Positions 4,344 to 47,505 are shown, numbered from the stretch's first letter. The stretch: 64,000 bases of DNA from an uncultured Pseudomonadota bacterium (GCA_963774325.1 CAVZEF010000004.1:222958-286957), one strand, 5' to 3'. Program-made: numbers and translations. The notes: generated from the sequence alone by a model not told the origin.

Positions 4344-5567
4344 ATGACCGAGACCCCCGAGGCCCAGAGGAGAGCGCGGCTGATCCGCGAGCATCGCGAG
4401 TTGCTCGCGCGCAAGAACGAGCTCGACCCGACCTTCTCCAATGGCTTGTGCGATCGCTATCGCTTTCCGGTGCTGACCGCGGCGCACACGCCGATCTTCT
4501 GGCGTTACGACCTCGACCTCGACGACAACCCGTTCCTCCTCGAACGGCTGGGCGTCAACGCCGTCTTCAACGCCGGCGCGATCGAGCACGCGGGCAAGAT
4601 CTTGGTTGTCTGCCGCGTCGAGGGCGTCGACCGCAAGTCGTTCTTCGCCGTCGCTGAAAGCGCCAACGGTATCGACGCGTTCAGATTTTGGGACTACCCG
4701 ATCCTGCTGCCGGAGACCGACGACCCCGACATCAACGTCTACGACATGCGCCTCGTGCGGCACGAGGACGGCTACATCTATGGTCTGTTCTGCACCGAGC
4801 GAAAAGACCCGGCCGCGCCTTCCGGCGACACCTCGAGCGCGATCGCGCAGTGCGGGATCGCGCGCACGCGTGACCTCGTCACGTGGGAACGGCTCGCCGA
4901 CCTGCGAAGCCGCTCGGCGCAACAGCGCAACGTCGTGCTGCACCCGGAATTCATCGACGGAAAGTACGCGTTCTACACGCGCCCGCAGGACAGCTTCATC
5001 GAGGCCGGCAAAGGCGGCGGGATCGGCTGGGCGCTGTCCGACTCGATCGAGCGCGCCACGATCGGCGACGAGCTGATCATCGACGAGAAGCGGTACCACA
5101 CGATCAAGGAGGCGAAGAACGGCCAGGGGCCGGCACCGCTCAAGACCGCGAAAGGCTGGCTTCATATCGCACACGGCGTGCGCAACACGGCCGCGGGCCT
5201 GCGCTACGTCCTTTACGCGTTCCTCTCCGACCTCGCGCACCCCGAGCGCGTCACGCACAGCCCCGGCGGCTACCTGCTGGCGCCGATCGCAGACGAGCGC
5301 GTGGGCGACGTCTCGAACGTGCTCTTCTGCAACGGCGCGGTGGCGCGCGCGAACGGCGAGATCCTGATCTACTACGCCTCGTCGGACACGCGCCTTCACG
5401 TCGCGACGACGACGGTCGACAAGATGCTCGACTACGTCACCGGGACGCCGCCCGACGGGCTTCGCTCGCACGCGTCGGTCGCGCAGCGCCATGCGCTCAT
5501 CGACAAGAACCTGGCCCTCATCGCCCGCGCGACGGACAGCGATCCGCTCCGCCGCGCACGAGGCTGA
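4344..5567 (+). CDS. GH130 4-O-beta-D-mannosyl-D-glucose phosphorylase-like glycosidase
   Basis: [76 protein letters not shown]. Confidence 0.9.
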
Positions 5568-5582
5568 GCGACCGAGCCAGCG

Positions 5583-6062
5583 TTACATCGACAGTGCCAG
5601 GTCGAAGCTGCCGTTCGTGATGCTCTTCGTGCCGCCGCTCGGCAGATCGAACACCACCTCGAACGTCCCGACGATCGGCGCACCACCGACGGCGCCGATC
5701 TGCGTGAAGGCCACCGTGCAGCTCTCGGCCTTGATCGTCGGCCCCGCGGGATTGTCGTTTCTGTAGCTGAGGAGCAGCGGCTTGTCGGGCGTCGTCTGGC
5801 CGCAGACGAACGTTTGCGCCGTGAACGGCGTCGGCGCCGCGGCGTAGATCGTGACGGCCGCGCTGTCGTTGACGCCGAGCATGTCGACGGAGTCCCTCCC
5901 CCCCATCGACAACCACGTCGCCTGTCCCCCGGTCGCGGTCATCATCACGCCGTCGTCGAGCCAGGTGAAGTGGTGGGCGCCGCCCAGCACGTTGCCGCCG
6001 CTGACGCAGCCGCCGAGCAGCGCCGACGCGGCGACAACCCACGCTCCGATTCGTGCCGTCAT
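5583..6062 (-). CDS. Hypothetical lipoprotein
   Basis: ATG at 6062, signal ending LLGG-C, beta-rich C-terminus (GTFEVVF...ITNGSFDL). Confidence 0.65.
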   Translation of the reverse strand: MTARIGAWVVAASALLGGCVSGGNVLGGAHHFTWLDDGVMMTATGGQATWLSMGGRDSVDMLGVNDSAAVTIYAAAPTPFTAQTFVCGQTTPDKPLLLSYRNDNPAGPTIKAESCTVAFTQIGAVGGAPIVGTFEVVFDLPSGGTKSITNGSFDLALSM

Positions 6063-6088
6063 CCGCTCAGCATAACCCTGTCCGCGGG

Positions 6089-6508
6089 CTACAGGTACCG
6101 CTGCTCCGCCGACCGGTCCCAGGCGTTGGCTCGCCCGTCCGCGTAGTGGATGGGGGCGCTGGCAAGCTCGTCGTCGCTCGCGTCGTCGAGGCAGGCGACG
6201 TTCACCGCGTGAAAGCTGCCGCCCATCTGGGGGAGCACCCCGCCCTCGGAGAAGGCGCGGACGCCGCACTGGTTGCAGAAGAACAGGTGCAGGAAAGGCT
6301 CGGCCCTGGTGGGCGGCGTGTGCCGGTAGTCGGTGAGCGACTCCTGGCCGCGCAACAGCCGAAACTCACCCTCTCTCGCGAACGCCATCCAGAACCGAGC
6401 CTTGCGGCAGAATGAACAGTTGCACCGGGTCGTCCCGGCCGCGAGGTCGAGCTCGCACTCGAACGCGACCGCTCCACAGTGACAGCTCCCGTGATAGGTC
6501 TTTTTCAT
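6089..6508 (-). CDS. GFA/CENP-V family protein
   Basis: YHGSCHCGAV, CNCSFCRK, FCNQCGV. Confidence 0.9.
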   Translation of the reverse strand: MKKTYHGSCHCGAVAFECELDLAAGTTRCNCSFCRKARFWMAFAREGEFRLLRGQESLTDYRHTPPTRAEPFLHLFFCNQCGVRAFSEGGVLPQMGGSFHAVNVACLDDASDDELASAPIHYADGRANAWDRSAEQRYL

Positions 6509-6584
6509 GACCGCTCCTACTGATTTCGTTTTACAACCAGTTGTCTTTTAAGATCGAACCGCCCAGACTGCAAGCAGGAAGTCG

Positions 6585-7007
6585 ATGGCGCCGCGCTCCT
6601 ACTGTCCCATCAACCTCGGCCTCGAGATCTTCGGCGACACGTGGACGCTCCTCGTGCTCCGCGACCTGATGTTCGGCGGCAAACGTCACTTCCGCGAGCT
6701 CTTGCAGTCCGACGAGGGGATCTCCTCGAACATCCTCGCCAACCGGCTCAAGCGCCTGGTCGACCGCGGGATCCTCACCAAGCGCGACGACCCGACCCAC
6801 AAGCAGAAAGCGATCTACAGCCTCACCGATCGCGGCATCGCCCTCCTGCCGATCCTGCTGCAGGTCGGAGCCTGGAGCCGCGTTCACCTGCCCGAGACGC
6901 GACGGTCCGATCCCCGGGTCCTGGCGATGAACCGATCGCTCGTCGAGAGTCGGGGAGCGATGCGGCGAAAGATGGCCGAGCTGCGCAAGGTCCACGTCGG
7001 CCGCTGA
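6585..7007 (+). CDS. HxlR-family winged-helix regulator
   Basis: CPINLGLEIFGDTWTLLVLRDL...HFRELL...ISSNILANRLK...YSLTDRG; divergent from the GFA gene. Confidence 0.9.
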   Translation: MAPRSYCPINLGLEIFGDTWTLLVLRDLMFGGKRHFRELLQSDEGISSNILANRLKRLVDRGILTKRDDPTHKQKAIYSLTDRGIALLPILLQVGAWSRVHLPETRRSDPRVLAMNRSLVESRGAMRRKMAELRKVHVGR

Positions 7008-24695: not shown

Positions 24696-25166
24696 CCTCC
24701 ACGCGCGGGCACGAATCATCCCTCATGTACAAGGGAGGCCCTCCGTCAAACCGGTACACGAAATCGAGGCGTGCTTCCGCGCATGGCGGTTCGCGTCGTG
24801 CGATGTAATTTTTTTGCGGGGGAAATCCTCAGAGATCACCGGTGCATCGATTCTCTTCACCGCGCGCTTCAACGTGCGACCAAACAAATTCACCCTTGAC
24901 TGTGTCAACGCAAAAGATCACCCTGATTGGGCAATGACAAGGTTGTGCACATGGTCGATTTGCCGGACGGGATGCGAATCCCTTCGGGCGGTCGTGTGCG
25001 TGCGTTTGGCCGGTCGCCAGGGTCAAAAGCACACCCCCGGATCAGTCCCGTGCTCGTATTCCCAAGAGTCCGGGACCTTGAATTTTGGGGATAGCACCGG
25101 CGATAGCAATATCGCTATGGGGTGGCCAATCGGGTAGCTCGAACTGACTGTTCGCAGCCCGAGACG

Positions 25167-25195
25167 AGGCCGCCCCCCAAAAGGGCGGCCTTTTT
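25167..25195 (+). terminator. Intrinsic terminator 10 nt upstream of the tRNA array
   Basis: AGGCCGCCC-cccaaaa-GGGCGGCCT followed by TTTT. Confidence 0.75.
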
Positions 25196-25204
25196 GCGTT
25201 TCTG

Positions 25205-25283
25205 GCCTCTCGCGCTGGGACGCAACGGTGCCTGTAAAGCACTGGCCCTTGGGGTTTGCCTGGTTCGATTCCAGGGAGGGGCA
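25205..25283 (+). tRNA. trnY: tRNA-Tyr(GTA), shortened D-arm, no encoded CCA
   Basis: Acceptor GCCTCTC/GAGGGGC, loop CTGTAAA, long variable arm, T-arm CCTGG-TTCGATT-CCAGG. Confidence 0.8.
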
Positions 25284-25331
25284 CGACTGCCTGAAGCCGA
25301 GGAGAACGACGAATGACAGACGGCCAATTGC

Positions 25332-25401
25332 TCGGGGATCGCTAATGGCAGGCAAACCGCCTTTGAAGCGGTTGGTTGAGGTTCGAATCCTCATCCCCGA
25401 A
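25332..25401 (+). tRNA. trnQ: tRNA-Gln(TTG), no encoded CCA
   Basis: Acceptor TCGGGGA/TCCCCGA, ACCGC-CTTTGAA-GCGGT, TGAGG-TTCGAAT-CCTCA. Confidence 0.88.
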
Positions 25402-25405
25402 CGCC

Positions 25406-25436
25406 TGGCGCTCGCGACGCCACTGATCTTTGACAA
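25406..25436 (+). promoter_or_regulatory. boxB-like hairpin + boxA-like antitermination site
   Basis: TGGCG-ctcgcga-CGCCA then CTGATCTTTGACAA, resembling rrn boxA. Confidence 0.55.
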
Positions 25437-25491
25437 CCAAATAGTCGACGTGAAGGAGGCGGGACGCCATTCCCGCCGACATCGCCAATAC

Positions 25492-25564
25492 GCCCTCGGC
25501 GAATGGATCGCGGCCAGCGCTACGAACGCAGGCTTCGGAGGTTCGAGTCCTCTCGGGGGTACCA
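25492..25564 (+). tRNA. trnR: tRNA-Arg(ACG) with CCA
   Basis: Acceptor GCCCTCG/CGGGGGT, loop CTACGAA, GGAGG-TTCGAGT-CCTCT; atypical D-arm connector. Confidence 0.82.
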
Positions 25565-25565
25565 C

Positions 25566-25634
25566 GCCGGCGAGCTTCGGCAGCCCGGCGCCCTCATGAG
25601 GCGCGCGGAGATGGTTCGACTCCCTCCGCCGGTA
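25566..25634 (+). tRNA. tRNA with CAT anticodon (Met or Ile2), degenerate, 69 nt
   Basis: Acceptor GCCGGCG/CGCCGGT, GCGCC-CTCATGA-GGCGC, T-loop TTCGACT with one stem mismatch. Confidence 0.65.
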
Positions 25635-25648
25635 CGGCACGCACGCAC

Positions 25649-25722
25649 GCACGATTGTCCGAGCGGATAGGACCCGGTCTTCCAAACCGGAGAGGCGAGT
25701 TCGACTCTCGCATCGTGCTCCA
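25649..25722 (+). tRNA. trnG: tRNA-Gly(TCC) with CCA
   Basis: GCACGAT/ATCGTGC, CCGGT-CTTCCAA-ACCGG, GCGAG-TTCGACT-CTCGC, T-CCA. Confidence 0.92.
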
Positions 25723-25729
25723 AGCAGAA

Positions 25730-25798
25730 GGCCGCCGCGGCTGCTGGTTGCTCCGCCGGGACTGGGGGTCCCGGCGTTCCAGCGGAAGGGCGGCGGCC
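25730..25798 (+). other. Long nested stem-loop between tRNA-Gly and tRNA-Thr
   Basis: GGCCGCCGC/GCGGCGGCC, CTGCTGG/CCAGCGG and CGCCGGGAC/GTCCCGGCG nested pairings. Confidence 0.55.
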
Positions 25799-25806
25799 GA
25801 ACACGT

Positions 25807-25881
25807 GCCCTCGAAGCGTTGCTGGCGACGCGCCGGTTCCGTAAACCGGAGAACGCGGTTCGATTCCGCGCGGGGGCTCCA
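25807..25881 (+). tRNA. trnT: tRNA-Thr(CGT) with CCA (C33 instead of U33)
   Basis: GCCCTCG/CGGGGGC, D stem GCGT/ACGC, CCGGT-TCCGTAA-ACCGG, CGCGG-TTCGATT-CCGCG. Confidence 0.85.
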
Positions 25882-25882
25882 T

Positions 25883-25958
25883 TCCAGGGTGGCAGATCGG
25901 TTCATGCGCTCGCCTGTTGAGCGAGACGAGGCAGGTTCGATTCCTGCTCCTGGAGCCA
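25883..25958 (+). tRNA. trnN: tRNA-Asn(GTT) with CCA
   Basis: TCCAGGG/TCCTGGA, CTCGC-CTGTTGA-GCGAG, GCAGG-TTCGATT-CCTGC, G73. Confidence 0.92.
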
Positions 25959-25989
25959 CGCGCCCGCCGGTTCGCCGGCCGTACTTTCT

Positions 25990-26064
25990 GCTCACGTACG
26001 CATCTGGTGAGGCGGGCCGGTTGTCTCCCGGCTGAGAGGAGTTCGATTCTCCCCGTGGGCGCCA
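25990..26064 (+). tRNA. trnD: tRNA-Asp(GTC) with CCA (pyrimidine at 37)
   Basis: GCTCACG/CGTGGGC, GCCGG-TTGTCTC-CCGGC, T-loop TTCGATT, G73. Confidence 0.87.
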
Positions 26065-26092
26065 CCGCCTTTTTTTCGTTCGTCAGTGCAAC

Positions 26093-26166
26093 TGGCCCGT
26101 AGCTCAACGGGTAGAGGCAGACCGCTCAAGTCGGTCGGGTTGCGGGTTCGAATCCCGCCGGGCCAA
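26093..26166 (+). tRNA. trnL: tRNA with CAA anticodon (Leu) but short variable loop
   Basis: TGGCCCG/CGGGCCA, TA-GCTC D-arm, GACCG-CTCAAGT-CGGTC, 5-nt variable loop, GCGGG-TTCGAAT-CCCGC. Confidence 0.8.
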
Positions 26167-26184
26167 CAACCAAGGAGATCCGTC

Positions 26185-26459
26185 ATGTCCGCCGCCGCCG
26201 TCCTGTTCCTGGATGCGCAATACCGTCCCCTTCGCGTCGAACCCTGGCAGCGAGCGATCGCCGACTTCTTCCTCGGCAAGGTCGAGGTGGTGGCGTACAG
26301 CCGCGATCGGACCATCCAGGGAGTCGACCGCCAGCTGGTCTCACGCTGGCATCGAGACCCATCAAGCCACGCTACTTGCCCGCCGTCACCGTTCGGATCG
26401 GCCGGGGCTCGATCCCGGAGGAGTGGAGGCCGTACTGGTCGACGACGATCGATGCCTGA
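26185..26459 (+). pseudogene. HNH endonuclease remnant with internal deletion of the nuclease core
   Basis: AAGGAG RBS. N-terminus VLFLDAQYRPLRVEPWQRAIADFFLGKVEVV; after a frame change AGLTLASRPIKPRYLPAVTV...IPEEWRPYW-stop. No CxxC/HNH motifs in between. Confidence 0.7.
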
Positions 26460-26517
26460 AGCCTCTGCACCCGACCGTCACGTCGACTCGCGACCCGCGG
26501 CAGCGTAGGTTGTTGCG

Positions 26518-27745: not shown

Positions 27746-28064
27746 GTGCGCGATTTTATCGGACGGCGACGGCGATTGGCAAACCGGCCGTCGGTTTTGT
27801 GAACCGAGGAGCAGCAGCTAGTTAGAAACCATGCTCTGCTCCGCATAGGTGATCGACGTCATGCGGAGCTTTGCCACCTGTGCGATATCGGGCTCGCGCT
27901 CTGGCGTCGATCTTCTTCCATCTCGCCTCGCCCACGATGCCGTGCTCGGTCAGCTTCCGCGCGACGTGCTGCTAGTGTCCTGTCTCAGAAATCCGCCTGC
28001 ATTCGGGCGCGCCTGCGGCCCGCTCGCTTCGTTGCTCGTCGCTTACGCTGGCGCTTCACGGTGA

Positions 28065-43487: not shown

Positions 43488-45106
43488 TCAAGCAGCCTGG
43501 ATAGCCTGCAACGTGAGACCGAACCGGGCGAGGTACTTGCGAAGGCGATCGGCGTCGTTCGTCGTGGCGCGCGCGGAGCGCGACGCCGCGAACAGCGCGC
43601 GGCCTGCCTCGGATAGCGAGCGCGCGGTCCGGCAGATGCGGACGACCTCCTCGAGCTGGATCCGATCGAAGCGATCGAGGGCAGAAAGGTGCGCGCTGTC
43701 GAGCAAGCGGTCGAGGATGCCGTCGGGTTCCTCCGCATGCTTCGCCGCATCCGGCTCGACGCGCCAGAGCGCGCGCAGGCGCTCGATCTCGTCGTCGACC
43801 TCGGAAGTGCTGATGCGGCCACCCTCGCAGAGAGTCGCCATGCGGCGCAGCGACGCGCCGAAGTCGCGAAAGTTCCCGCTCCAGCGCGCCTCCGCGGAGC
43901 GCGCGAAGGCGAGATAGCGCTCCCGCGCCTCGCGGCTCAGCGTCAGGCGCTGCTTGAGGTCGTCGCCGACGCGTTCCAGCTCGAACTCGAGGTTGGTCTC
44001 GATGTCTTCTCGGCGGTCCCGGAGCCCGGGGAGCAGGAAGGTCCACAAGTTGATGCGCGCCAGGAGATCCTCGCGAAACCGGCCGCTCGCGACCCGATCG
44101 GCGAGATCCCGGTTGGTGCCCGCGATCAGCTGAAAGTCGCTGTGCACCTCCTTGTCGGAGCCGACCGGGAAGAAGGTCTTGTCCTCGATGGCGCGCAAGA
44201 GCATCGCCTGTTCGTCGAGACCGAGCTCGCCGATCTCGTCGAGGAACAGGACGCCCTTGTCGGCCTTGCGTAGCATCCCGCCGCGCCCTCGGCGGCCCCG
44301 GTATAGGCGCCGCGCACGTGTCCGAACAGCGTCGACATCGCGGCATCTCCGCGGACCGTCGCGCAGTTGATCTCGACGAGCTCTCCGGCGACCTGCCGCC
44401 GGGTCTTCTTGAGCTCGTAGATGCGCCGCGCGAGCTGTGACTTGCCCGAGCCCGTCGGTCCGCACAGCAGCACTGGATCGCGAGACGCGATCGCAACCTG
44501 CTCGACGCGCTCGATGAGGCGGTTGTACGCCGCGTTCTTGGTATCGATGCCCGCCTTCAGGAACGACAACCCCTCCGTGCGCTCCTTCTGAAAGCGTCGG
44601 GCGATGCTGTCGTACCGGGAGAGATCGAGGTCGATGATCGTGTAGGAGCCGGCTGCGTTCCCGTCGGGCGTGGGCGGAGGCGACGTCTGGATGAGGCGCG
44701 CGGGGATGTGTCGCGACTCGACGAGCAGAAACAGCGAGATCTGCGCGATGTGCGTTCCCGTCGTGATGTGGGCCAGGTAATCCTCTCGCGTCGGATCGAA
44801 CGAGTAGCGGCGCGCGAAGTCGCGGAGCGCGCCATAGGTCTCCTCCAGGTCCCAGGGGTCCGCGATCTCGATGACGTCGAGCTCCACGGTCGTCTCGGGC
44901 GACACCTGCACCACGTCCGCTGCGATGGCCCGGGCGAGACCCGCGTAGCGCGAACCGTGTAGCAGAACGAGCCGATCGACCAGCAGATCCTCGTGCTGGC
45001 AGAGCGACACCGTCGGTCGCCAGCGTTCCCAGCGGGCAGGCCCGCGCTTTCCCTGGTCGAGGGTCGATCCGAGGAAGCCGATGACCGTGAGCCGGCGGCG
45101 CGACAT
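43488..45106 (-). pseudogene. rtcR: RNA-repair sigma54 activator RtcR with a single-base frameshift near 44288
   Basis: N-terminal GFLGSTLD..RWERWRPTVSLCQ, HITTGTHIAQI, GPTGSGKS, LFGHVRGAYTGA; other frame continues LFLDEIGE..DEQAMLLRAIE, NFRD, NDADRLRKYL. Confidence 0.88.
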
Positions 45107-45126
45107 TTATAGCATATCAATAGATA
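45102..45126. promoter_or_regulatory. AT-rich putative RtcR upstream activating site overlapping the rtcR start
   Basis: ATTTATAGCATATCAATAGATAAG containing TATC-N4-GATA, about 70 bp upstream of the sigma54 site. Confidence 0.45.
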
Positions 45127-45188
45127 AGCTGGGCCAGGAAGCCGGCGGTCGGGGCCGGCAGCCCGCGCTTCAGAAGCAGCGGTGCTCG

Positions 45189-45204
45189 TGGCACGTTCGC
45201 TGCA
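45189..45204 (+). promoter_or_regulatory. sigma54 -24/-12 promoter of rtcBA
   Basis: TGGCACGTTCGCTGCA versus consensus TGGCACG-N4-TTGCW. Confidence 0.85.
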
Positions 45205-45217
45205 AACTGGGTGGCTC

Positions 45218-46468
<1,251 letters not shown>

Positions 46469-46482
46469 GAGGACAAAGGACA

Positions 46483-47505
46483 ATGATCGCGCTCGATGGA
46501 TCGCAGGGCGAAGGCGGCGGCCAGATTCTCCGGTCGGCGCTCTCGCTCTCGCTGGTGACGGGGACGCCCTTCCGGATCGACAACATCCGGGCCGGGCGTC
46601 CCCGTCCGGGGCTGATGCGCCAGCACCTCACGGCCGTCGAGGCAGCCGCGGCTGTGGGCGGAGCCCGGACCACCGGTGCGGCCGTCGGCTCGCGCAGCCT
46701 CACGTTCGAACCGACCGGCGTACGAGCCGGCGACTATGTGTTCTCCGTCGGGACGGCTGGCAGCGCCACGCTCGTGCTCCAGACCGTGCTGCCGGGCCTG
46801 CTCACCGCCGATCGCCCCTCATCGCTGGTGCTCGAAGGCGGCACGCACAATCCGAGCTCGCCACCGTTCGACTTCCTCGCGAAGGCGTTTCTGCCTCTCG
46901 TCGCTCGCATGGGTCCCCAGGTCGAGGCGACGCTGGAGCGACCCGGGTTTTACCCGGCCGGCGGCGGCCGCTTTCGCGTCACCGTCGCGCCGACGACGGC
47001 TTTGACCCCGCTGGCTCTCGAGCAGCGGGGCGAGCTCCGTGCGCGACGTGTGCGCGCCGTCGTGGCGAGCCTGCCTCGCGCGATCGGTGAGCGCGAGCTG
47101 AATCGGTTCGCCGCGCGAACGCACTGGGACTCGTCGGCGTTCTCACTCGAGGCTGTGCCGAACTCGGTTGGGCCGGGCAACGCGCTAATCGCCGAGGTCG
47201 AGAGCGAGCACGTGACCGAGGTCTTCACGGGTTTCGGCGAAAAGCAGGTCCGCGCCGAGACCGTCGCCAACGTGTGCGCCGACGAGGTCCTCGCCTACCT
47301 CGCGACCGACGCACCCGTCGGCTCGCACCTCGCAGATCAGCTCGTGCTCCTGGTGGCCCTTGCGGGCGAGGGTATCTTCCGAACGACGACGCCGACGAAG
47401 CACACGCACACGCAGCTCGACGTCATCGCCCGCTTCCTGAGCACGTCGATCTCCTGTACCGAGGAAGCCGGGGGCACGTGGCGGATCGAAGCGCGGAGGG
47501 GATAG
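46483..47505 (+). CDS. rtcA: RNA 3'-terminal phosphate cyclase
   Basis: IALDGSQGEGGGQILRSAL, GLMRQH, GTHNPSSP, GFYPAGGG, HLADQL. Confidence 0.96.
   Translation: MIALDGSQGEGGGQILRSALSLSLVTGTPFRIDNIRAGRPRPGLMRQHLTAVEAAAAVGGARTTGAAVGSRSLTFEPTGVRAGDYVFSVGTAGSATLVLQTVLPGLLTADRPSSLVLEGGTHNPSSPPFDFLAKAFLPLVARMGPQVEATLERPGFYPAGGGRFRVTVAPTTALTPLALEQRGELRARRVRAVVASLPRAIGERELNRFAARTHWDSSAFSLEAVPNSVGPGNALIAEVESEHVTEVFTGFGEKQVRAETVANVCADEVLAYLATDAPVGSHLADQLVLLVALAGEGIFRTTTPTKHTHTQLDVIARFLSTSISCTEEAGGTWRIEARRG

Follow-up and report, generated by a model that had tools for sequence, protein, structure and literature searches.

The 64,000-nucleotide stretch of DNA analysed here (the window; C4:222958-286957) comes from a metagenome-assembled genome (MAG) of 8.57 Mb and 69% GC, in 6 contigs (G000), whose relatives belong to the class Polyangia of the Myxococcota. 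It carries a compact array of nine tRNA genes followed by the debris of an HNH endonuclease gene. This locus is probably the decayed chromosomal remnant of a long tRNA array (L-array) that was acquired horizontally from viruses or other mobile DNA of Polyangia: the nine genes are a collinear subset of larger arrays, the core of the HNH gene has been removed and mobility genes are gone. L-arrays are known to spread horizontally, to be usually redundant with the tRNAs of their host and to be linked to homing endonucleases (PMC8421152, PMC5966550, PMC4758250); HNH-linked arrays of this kind are thus known already, and the present one is a decayed member in Polyangia. What stands out most is that the only tRNA-Gln(UUG) gene of the genome belongs to the remnant; the core genomes of this lineage seem to be without this tRNA.

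Within the 963 bp between positions 25205 and 26167, ARAGORN finds exactly nine tRNA genes, all on the + strand, at a density of 9.3 per kb. Their anticodons are, in order, Tyr GTA, Gln TTG, Arg ACG, CAT, Gly TCC, Thr CGT, Asn GTT, Asp GTC and the leucine anticodon CAA. Direct reading of the 3' ends shows that CCA is encoded in five of them (Arg, Gly, Thr, Asn and Asp), and there is no rRNA in the 64-kb window. On the nine anticodons, the five CCA ends and the lack of adjacent rRNA, a preliminary description made from the DNA alone was accurate. The spacers range from 1 to 87 nt, all genes have the same orientation and no unit is repeated, which is the operon-like, non-periodic organization of L-arrays. 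The tRNA array unit as defined by Tran et al. (2016) has at least 20 genes at a density of at least 2 per kb; the density found here is well within that definition and the gene number falls short of it, intact relatives having 20-33 genes.

The nine genes are of unequal quality. The Rfam tRNA gathering score is passed by Gln, Gly, Thr, Asn and the CAA tRNA, with 46.7-53.9 bits, the bottom of the tRNA score range of this genome (in the Infernal scan, the 45 canonical tRNAs score 52-76 bits). These five have perfect or near-perfect cloverleaves. The four others (Tyr, Arg, CAT and Asp) are below the threshold. Among the matches listed up to E <= 10, the array Tyr has none to RF00005, the sole listed match being tRNA-Sec with 21.7 bits; the first gene of related arrays is likewise a Tyr tRNA. 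The cloverleaf of Arg(ACG) is conserved, with compensatory changes in its orthologues, whose alignment places the true 5' end at about 25492, the ARAGORN call being two bases too early.

The family to which this array belongs was uncovered by a search with an intact HNH protein, which has homologues in genomes of Polyangia, Nitrospirota and Acidobacteriota and in four viral contigs of IMG/VR. Among the loci scanned for tRNAs, an upstream array, of 5-33 tRNAs, was found only in viral contigs and in Polyangia-type MAGs (records filed under Polyangia, Myxococcales or uncultured proteobacterium). The gene order of the family is Tyr-Lys-Lys-Gln(UUG)-Phe...Glu-Glu-Arg(ACG)-CAT...Gly(UCC)-Thr(CGU)...Asn...Asp-Ile(UAU)-Leu...HNH. 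The nine genes of the window and the HNH remnant are collinear with two IMG/VR contigs (L171 and L172) and with arrays of Polyangia MAGs (L095-L098 and L105), the chance of nine items sharing one order being about 1 in 9!. The locus therefore has the order that defines what we call the Polyangia virus-type array family, including class-I tRNAs with a leucine anticodon followed by the HNH gene. Gene by gene, the counterparts in related arrays qualify as orthologues, with 76-96% identity for eight of the nine tRNAs and about 66-67% for Tyr; differences in the acceptor stem of Gly and in the anticodon stem of Gln are compensated. Alignment by blastn with L172 pairs window positions 25328-25481 with 1039-1187 and 25492-25594 with 2235-2335, so that the deletion breakpoints lie between retained genes. 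Left of 25328 the window no longer resembles related arrays, and the upstream region native to the family is absent here.

As to the parental elements, L171 has a Phage_Mu_F-like gene downstream of its array, and endolysin-like and other PHROG matches lie near the arrays of L172 and L173. A blastn comparison of the window array with INPHARED phages and PLSDB plasmids returned single-tRNA matches only, 70-80 nt long, and the whole array in none of them. The HNH gene was considered as a marker for arrays and rejected: the same family is widespread in Nitrospirota and Acidobacteriota, with no tRNAs nearby, and therefore the protein is not array-specific. The homologues in MAGs of these two phyla (L100-L170) are 45-53% identical, and none is adjacent to tRNAs in the scanned subset. 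Several intact arrays (L093, L095, L098 and L171-L174) also contain a tRNA-Ile(UAU), and L173 has a tRNA-Ile(AAU) in addition; the UAU anticodon is normally absent from bacteria.

The HNH gene of the window is a pseudogene without catalytic core. Its two pieces, in different frames, align with an intact relative of 176 amino acids (P0001) over residues 1-53 and 137-171, and the roughly 300 nt that encode the catalytic core have been deleted between them. Whereas L-arrays are typically linked to a homing endonuclease, intact in the relatives of this one, the link survives here as this core-less pseudogene. No phage, integrase or transposase domain was detected by Pfam and PHROG scans in the open reading frames (ORFs) flanking the locus, and a tyrosine-integrase query gave no match near the array, its only match being on another contig of the genome. 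Both the HNH remnant and the absence of an adjacent integrase had been noted beforehand. The integrase homologue of the other contig, at C2:2040935-2041883, lies less than 1 kb from the housekeeping tRNA-Leu(CAA) gene, where an element has probably integrated. Further downstream, window positions 27972-28046 hold a 75-bp interspersed repeat that is 94-99% identical to full-length genomic copies. It has 63 blastn matches in the genome, fragments included, often as inverted pairs about 100 bp apart, is found in G001 and G002 as well, and resembles a miniature inverted-repeat transposable element or the end of an insertion sequence.

The distribution of the array is sprinkled, as expected of DNA of foreign origin. 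There is no trace of it in the closest sister genome (G001), while other genera of the family, and viral contigs, carry larger arrays. The left flank is syntenic in G001 and G004 up to about position 24700; to the right of the array no synteny was found, and the region between 29 and 49 kb maps to scattered loci. G003 carries at C50:5000-5070 (L005) a solitary 70-nt CAT tRNA, 95% identical to that of the window and with an intact T stem, together with fragments of array spacers. This locus is unrelated to the window, so that the genus has two array remnants of independent origin.

Outside the array, ARAGORN and an Infernal scan with RF00005 agree on 45 canonical tRNA genes that provide all standard bacterial anticodons except Gln UUG. 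Eight of the nine array anticodons (Tyr GTA, Arg ACG, CAT, Gly TCC, Thr CGT, Asn GTT, Asp GTC and Leu CAA) thus duplicate canonical tRNAs and fit the supernumerary isodecoders of L-arrays; Gln(UUG) brings an anticodon that is new for the genome. Compared with their best match elsewhere in the genome, the array tRNAs are about 66-79% identical, at most about 70% except for Gln(UUG), with 79%. The eight redundant tRNAs are probably dispensable. The anticodon/T-arm part of tRNA-Pro(UGG) is present in extra copies, two in G000 (C3:478181 and C3:499085) and five in G001, some of which are not called as full tRNAs.

In six of the eight array tRNAs that can be compared with a housekeeping counterpart, the anticodon loop differs at position 32, 33, 37 or 38, examples being C33 in Thr, U37 in Asp and G37 in Asn and CAT. 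U33 is near-universal in tRNAs, and A37 is expected in tRNAs that read ANN codons. Yet many of these oddities recur in relatives: C33 of Thr is also present in L172 and L006, and the compact Arg(ACG), the 70-nt CAT tRNA, the U37 Asp and the class-I Leu-anticodon tRNAs are shared forms as well. The stems of the Arg and CAT orthologues, the two tested, co-vary. Because they recur in relatives, these odd tRNAs represent conserved unusual forms of the element family and not random decay. Two changes are particular to this copy, namely the T-stem mismatch of the CAT tRNA and G37 of Asn, found in no listed orthologue; they look like damage.

Taken together, these data suggest the following history. 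Viruses, proviruses and other mobile DNA of Polyangia carry L-arrays of up to 33 tRNAs, whose transcription into a single long RNA would rely on antitermination as in rrn operons, and the HNH homing-type endonuclease at their 3' end would probably spread or reshuffle them. One such array would have entered this genome, in which several internal deletions have left nine collinear tRNAs of about 30.

The proposed mode of transcription comes from the 87-nt spacer that follows Gln(UUG). The whole spacer is conserved in an alignment of seven arrays, and its CTGATCTTTGACAA motif is one mismatch away from the boxA-like TGCTCTTTGACAA; the rrn spacer of the host carries GGCTCTTTGAAAA. This conservation of the hairpin and the boxA-like motif suggests that the parental arrays may be transcribed in one piece, with antitermination of the rrn type. 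A terminator-like site also occurs inside the window array, at 26057-26080, where a run of seven T residues follows tRNA-Asp immediately, before the CAA tRNA.

The glutamine gene deserves separate treatment. According to both inventories, the 8.57-Mb genome has no UUG glutamine tRNA other than the array Gln(UUG). The latter is 79% identical to the host Gln(CUG), with the whole acceptor stem and the discriminator base identical. The housekeeping locus reads Gln(CUG)-Glu(CUC) in G000 (C5:391362-391536), G001, G003, G004 and G011, and Gln(CUG)-Gln(UUG)-Glu(CUC) in G006 and G024. In the array-free G001, assembled in 7 contigs, the tRNA inventory is complete but for Gln(UUG); candidate Gln(UUG) sites returned by a pattern scan of G001 and G002 turned out not to be tRNAs. 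G019, from another genus and 97% complete, lacks Gln(UUG) plus three other tRNAs. When 89 genomes of the family were scanned for a Gln(UUG) with the host acceptor stem, six (in three genera) had one of the housekeeping type, nine, including G000, had one of the array type, and 74 had none. It thus appears that core genomes of the family have no tRNA-Gln(UUG) and retain Gln(CUG) alone, while still using the CAA codon. Indeed, CAA occurs in G000 at 3.0 per 1000 codons, or 9.8% of glutamine codons, and its share in G001 and G004 is 8-13% (small samples). In the tuf-rpl-rpoBC region of G000 it falls to 6 of 165 glutamine codons (3.6%), with GAA and AAA barely dropping, which fits a poorly decoded codon. 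According to a review, no UNN anticodon besides UAU has been lost in bacteria, and it is the CNN anticodons that are commonly lost in these boxes (PMC8007984); against this rule, the lineage looks exceptional.

Being intact, with an acceptor stem of the host type, and the only cognate CAA decoder in the genome, Gln(UUG) is the part of the array most likely to have been functionally retained, and the chance that selection has kept it is not far short of even. The fuller proposition, that the U34 glutamine tRNA was lost from the core genome in most of the family, that viruses of the lineage bring arrays with a Gln(UUG) of host-type acceptor stem, and that a decayed array was domesticated in this genome as the sole cognate CAA decoder, is put forward tentatively.

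The preliminary description had also drawn attention to an RNA-repair locus, rtcR-rtcBA, about 17 kb from the array, and Pfam does place these genes at 43488-47505. The rtcR gene is split into overlapping ORFs, one (44126-45106) encoding the RtcR domain and the first half of the AAA+ domain, the other (43488-44465) the remainder of the AAA+ domain; either the gene has become a pseudogene through a frameshift, or the split stems from an indel error in a long-read assembly. The array and the rtc locus are 17.3 kb apart, with a molybdopterin oxidoreductase complex, a cytochrome P460 and other unrelated proteins between them, and orthologues of rtcB occupy other loci in G002-G004, G001 having only a weak match of 65% identity. 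The idea that the rtc locus and the array form one island finds no support in these data. At the level of the array family, a tie to RNA repair has circumstantial evidence in its favour: directly 3' of the array HNH gene, L098 has an RtcB gene (4556-5743; 53% identical to the RtcB of the window and split over two frames) and L096 a Ro60/TROVE gene (4883-6685). These neighbours were seen in two of about a dozen arrays, each from another Polyangia MAG, and suggest that array elements may sometimes travel with RNA-repair or RNA quality-control genes, in keeping with a published proposal that phages use their tRNAs against defences that target tRNAs (PMC10264068).

Three other explanations of the locus have to be weighed against that of a decayed mobile array. 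An ordinary housekeeping operon, inherited vertically, is extremely improbable. The fact that Gln(UUG) is a single-copy anticodon speaks for it. By the terms of the preliminary description, genes that are the sole copies in the genome would be housekeeping ones and would count against its backup-set reading; this holds for Gln(UUG), and not for the other eight anticodons, which have canonical copies elsewhere. Close relatives do not share the locus at a common site (G001 lacks it, and no site is conserved in G002-G004), its tRNAs score 47-54 bits and are unlike the canonical isoacceptors, their orthologues reside in viral contigs and an HNH pseudogene is attached to them. The view that the array is accessory and akin to the HNH-linked arrays of mobile elements is borne out by the same observations. 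The further proposal that it serves as a backup set, maintained and inducible, against anticodon nucleases or antibiotic-stalled ribosomes, possibly together with RtcB/RtcA repair, fared less well and is unlikely. It can draw on precedents, since the L-array of Anabaena responds to translation inhibitors by induction and yields charged tRNAs (PMC8421152), and since phage tRNAs have anticodon-loop changes predicted to escape tRNases (PMC10264068); the loop differences described above, with Asp U37 and Thr C33 recurring in related arrays, the RtcB and Ro60/TROVE neighbours and the rtcR-rtcBA genes of the window would also agree with it. But the genes retained after the deletions look like a random subset, the HNH gene is dead, the region just upstream of the array has a terminator and no promoter match, and G37 in Asn and CAT plus the T-stem mismatch look like damage. 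Besides, the rtc genes lie behind oxidoreductase genes and are unlinked to the array in relatives, and rtcR is split in two.

An altogether inert relic, in which the whole locus, Gln(UUG) included, would be untranscribed or uncharged and merely await deletion, is a more serious contender, although still rather doubtful. It would account for the four sub-threshold genes, for the HNH pseudogene and for array-free sisters that manage without Gln(UUG), and L-arrays are often poorly expressed (PMC8421152). Immediately upstream of tRNA-Tyr stands a strong intrinsic-terminator-like hairpin (10-bp stem with 8 GC pairs, followed by a TTTGCGTTT tail), and no promoter-like site was found; the expression of the remnant is therefore uncertain, and it may be silent. 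Set against complete inertness are the perfect or nearly perfect cloverleaves of Gln, Gly, Thr, Asn and the CAA tRNA, the compensation of stem differences from orthologues (as in Gly and Gln), the retained boxA-like spacer, and the fact that Gln(UUG) fills the single gap of an otherwise complete anticodon set.

The preferred reading, a decayed mobile array with a possibly functional Gln(UUG), has to reckon with several unfavourable points. No sigma-70-like promoter was found for the array, and the terminator lies only 7 nt ahead of its first gene. Few marker genes support the viral status of the high-GC IMG/VR contigs. Synteny is scrambled within the genus, and neither island borders nor attachment sites could be called. 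Sister genomes that have no Gln(UUG) show a similar CAA frequency; therefore this tRNA is not strictly required in the lineage. Finally, with a MAG of an estimated 78% completeness, in 6 contigs, there is a slight chance that a housekeeping Gln(UUG) was overlooked.

Table 1. Coordinates of the tRNA locus, its presumed transcription signals and the RNA-repair genes in the window
Feature	Position	Strand	Remarks
Intrinsic-terminator-like hairpin and T-run	25166..25198	+	ends 7 nt before tRNA-Tyr
tRNA-Tyr(GTA)	25205..25284	+	80 nt; poor D arm; CCA not encoded; made redundant by canonical Tyr at C6:2002162
tRNA-Gln(UUG)	25332..25402	+	well formed; CCA not encoded; sole Gln(UUG) gene of the genome
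Hairpin followed by boxA-like CTGATCTTTGACAA	25406..25436	+	within the spacer conserved after Gln(UUG) in seven arrays
tRNA-Arg(ACG)	25490..25564	+	compact variant; CCA encoded; Rfam 19.7 bits
tRNA(CAT)	25566..25635	+	70 nt; G37; one T-stem mismatch; CCA not encoded; Arg(ACG)-CAT pair kept in viral arrays
tRNA-Gly(UCC)	25649..25722	+	CCA encoded; 96% identical to the copy of IMG/VR contigs L171 and L174
tRNA-Thr(CGU)	25807..25881	+	C33 instead of U33; CCA encoded
tRNA-Asn(GUU)	25883..25958	+	G37 (A37 in host and closest orthologues); CCA encoded
tRNA-Asp(GUC)	25990..26064	+	U37, as in most orthologues listed; 4-bp T stem; CCA encoded
Leu-anticodon CAA tRNA	26093..26167	+	75-nt class-I tRNA; A73; long variable arm absent; last gene before HNH, as in related arrays
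HNH endonuclease gene, N-terminal remnant	26186..26337	+	about 50 codons; 72% identical to intact relative
HNH endonuclease gene, C-terminal remnant	26364..26460	+	frame different from that of the N-terminal piece
rtcR	43488-45106	-	Pfam; split over two frames
rtcB	45182-46468		Pfam
rtcA	46336-47505		Pfam

Several known systems resemble this locus. The arrays of mycobacteria, of mycobacteriophages (clusters M and C1) and of mycobacterial plasmids (Morgado & Vicente 2018, PMC5966550; PMC12803027) are likewise dense and on one strand. They cover most amino acids, have HNH as their most commonly linked gene, and are shared between phages and chromosomes in a patchy manner, with prophage-derived remnants. 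The present array differs from them in belonging to Myxococcota (Polyangia), in its unrelated gene order, in having nine genes (below the 20-gene definition) and a destroyed HNH gene, and in that one of its members provides an anticodon for which the host has no other tRNA. The trn operon of Anabaena sp. PCC 7120, associated with all8564 (Santamaria-Gomez et al. 2021, PMC8421152), is similarly of horizontal origin, mostly redundant and next to a homing endonuclease; such arrays show frequent insertions and deletions between relatives, and some of their members are pseudogenes. That of Anabaena is intact, however, with 26 genes, of which 23 give charged tRNAs, and is induced by translational stress, whereas the one described here is truncated and known from its sequence alone. 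The arrays of Acidithiobacillus and other prokaryotes (Tran et al. 2016, PMC4758250) share the high density, the horizontal acquisition and the later deletions and rearrangements, but add redundancy only. The text of that survey lists Firmicutes, Cyanobacteria, Actinobacteria, gamma-proteobacteria and a few other groups, and no Deltaproteobacteria or Myxococcota. Phage tRNA clusters (van den Berg et al. 2023, PMC10264068) provide the parallel of loop variants relative to the host (here C33, U37 and G37) and of viral parent elements; the variants of phages are proposed to escape host tRNases, whereas some of the loop changes found here may be decay.

The locus extends HNH-linked long tRNA arrays to Myxococcota (Polyangia) and to their viruses, a host group that is not named in the surveys cited above (PMC8421152, PMC5966550, PMC4758250). 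It also takes its place in a series of decay, which runs from viral arrays of about 30 genes through chromosomal arrays of 13-27 to the nine-gene remnant and the solitary tRNA of a sister genome. The RtcB and Ro60 neighbours of related arrays hint at elements that pair tRNA supply with RNA repair. Above all, the combination of a Gln(UUG) gap in the core genome with a mobile copy compatible with the host raises the question of whether mobile arrays can permanently repair an anticodon hole of their host, and of how array-free relatives read CAA. The loss of the U34 glutamine tRNA from core genomes that still use CAA, if true, would be the reverse of the bacterial rule that U34 stays and C34 is dispensable.

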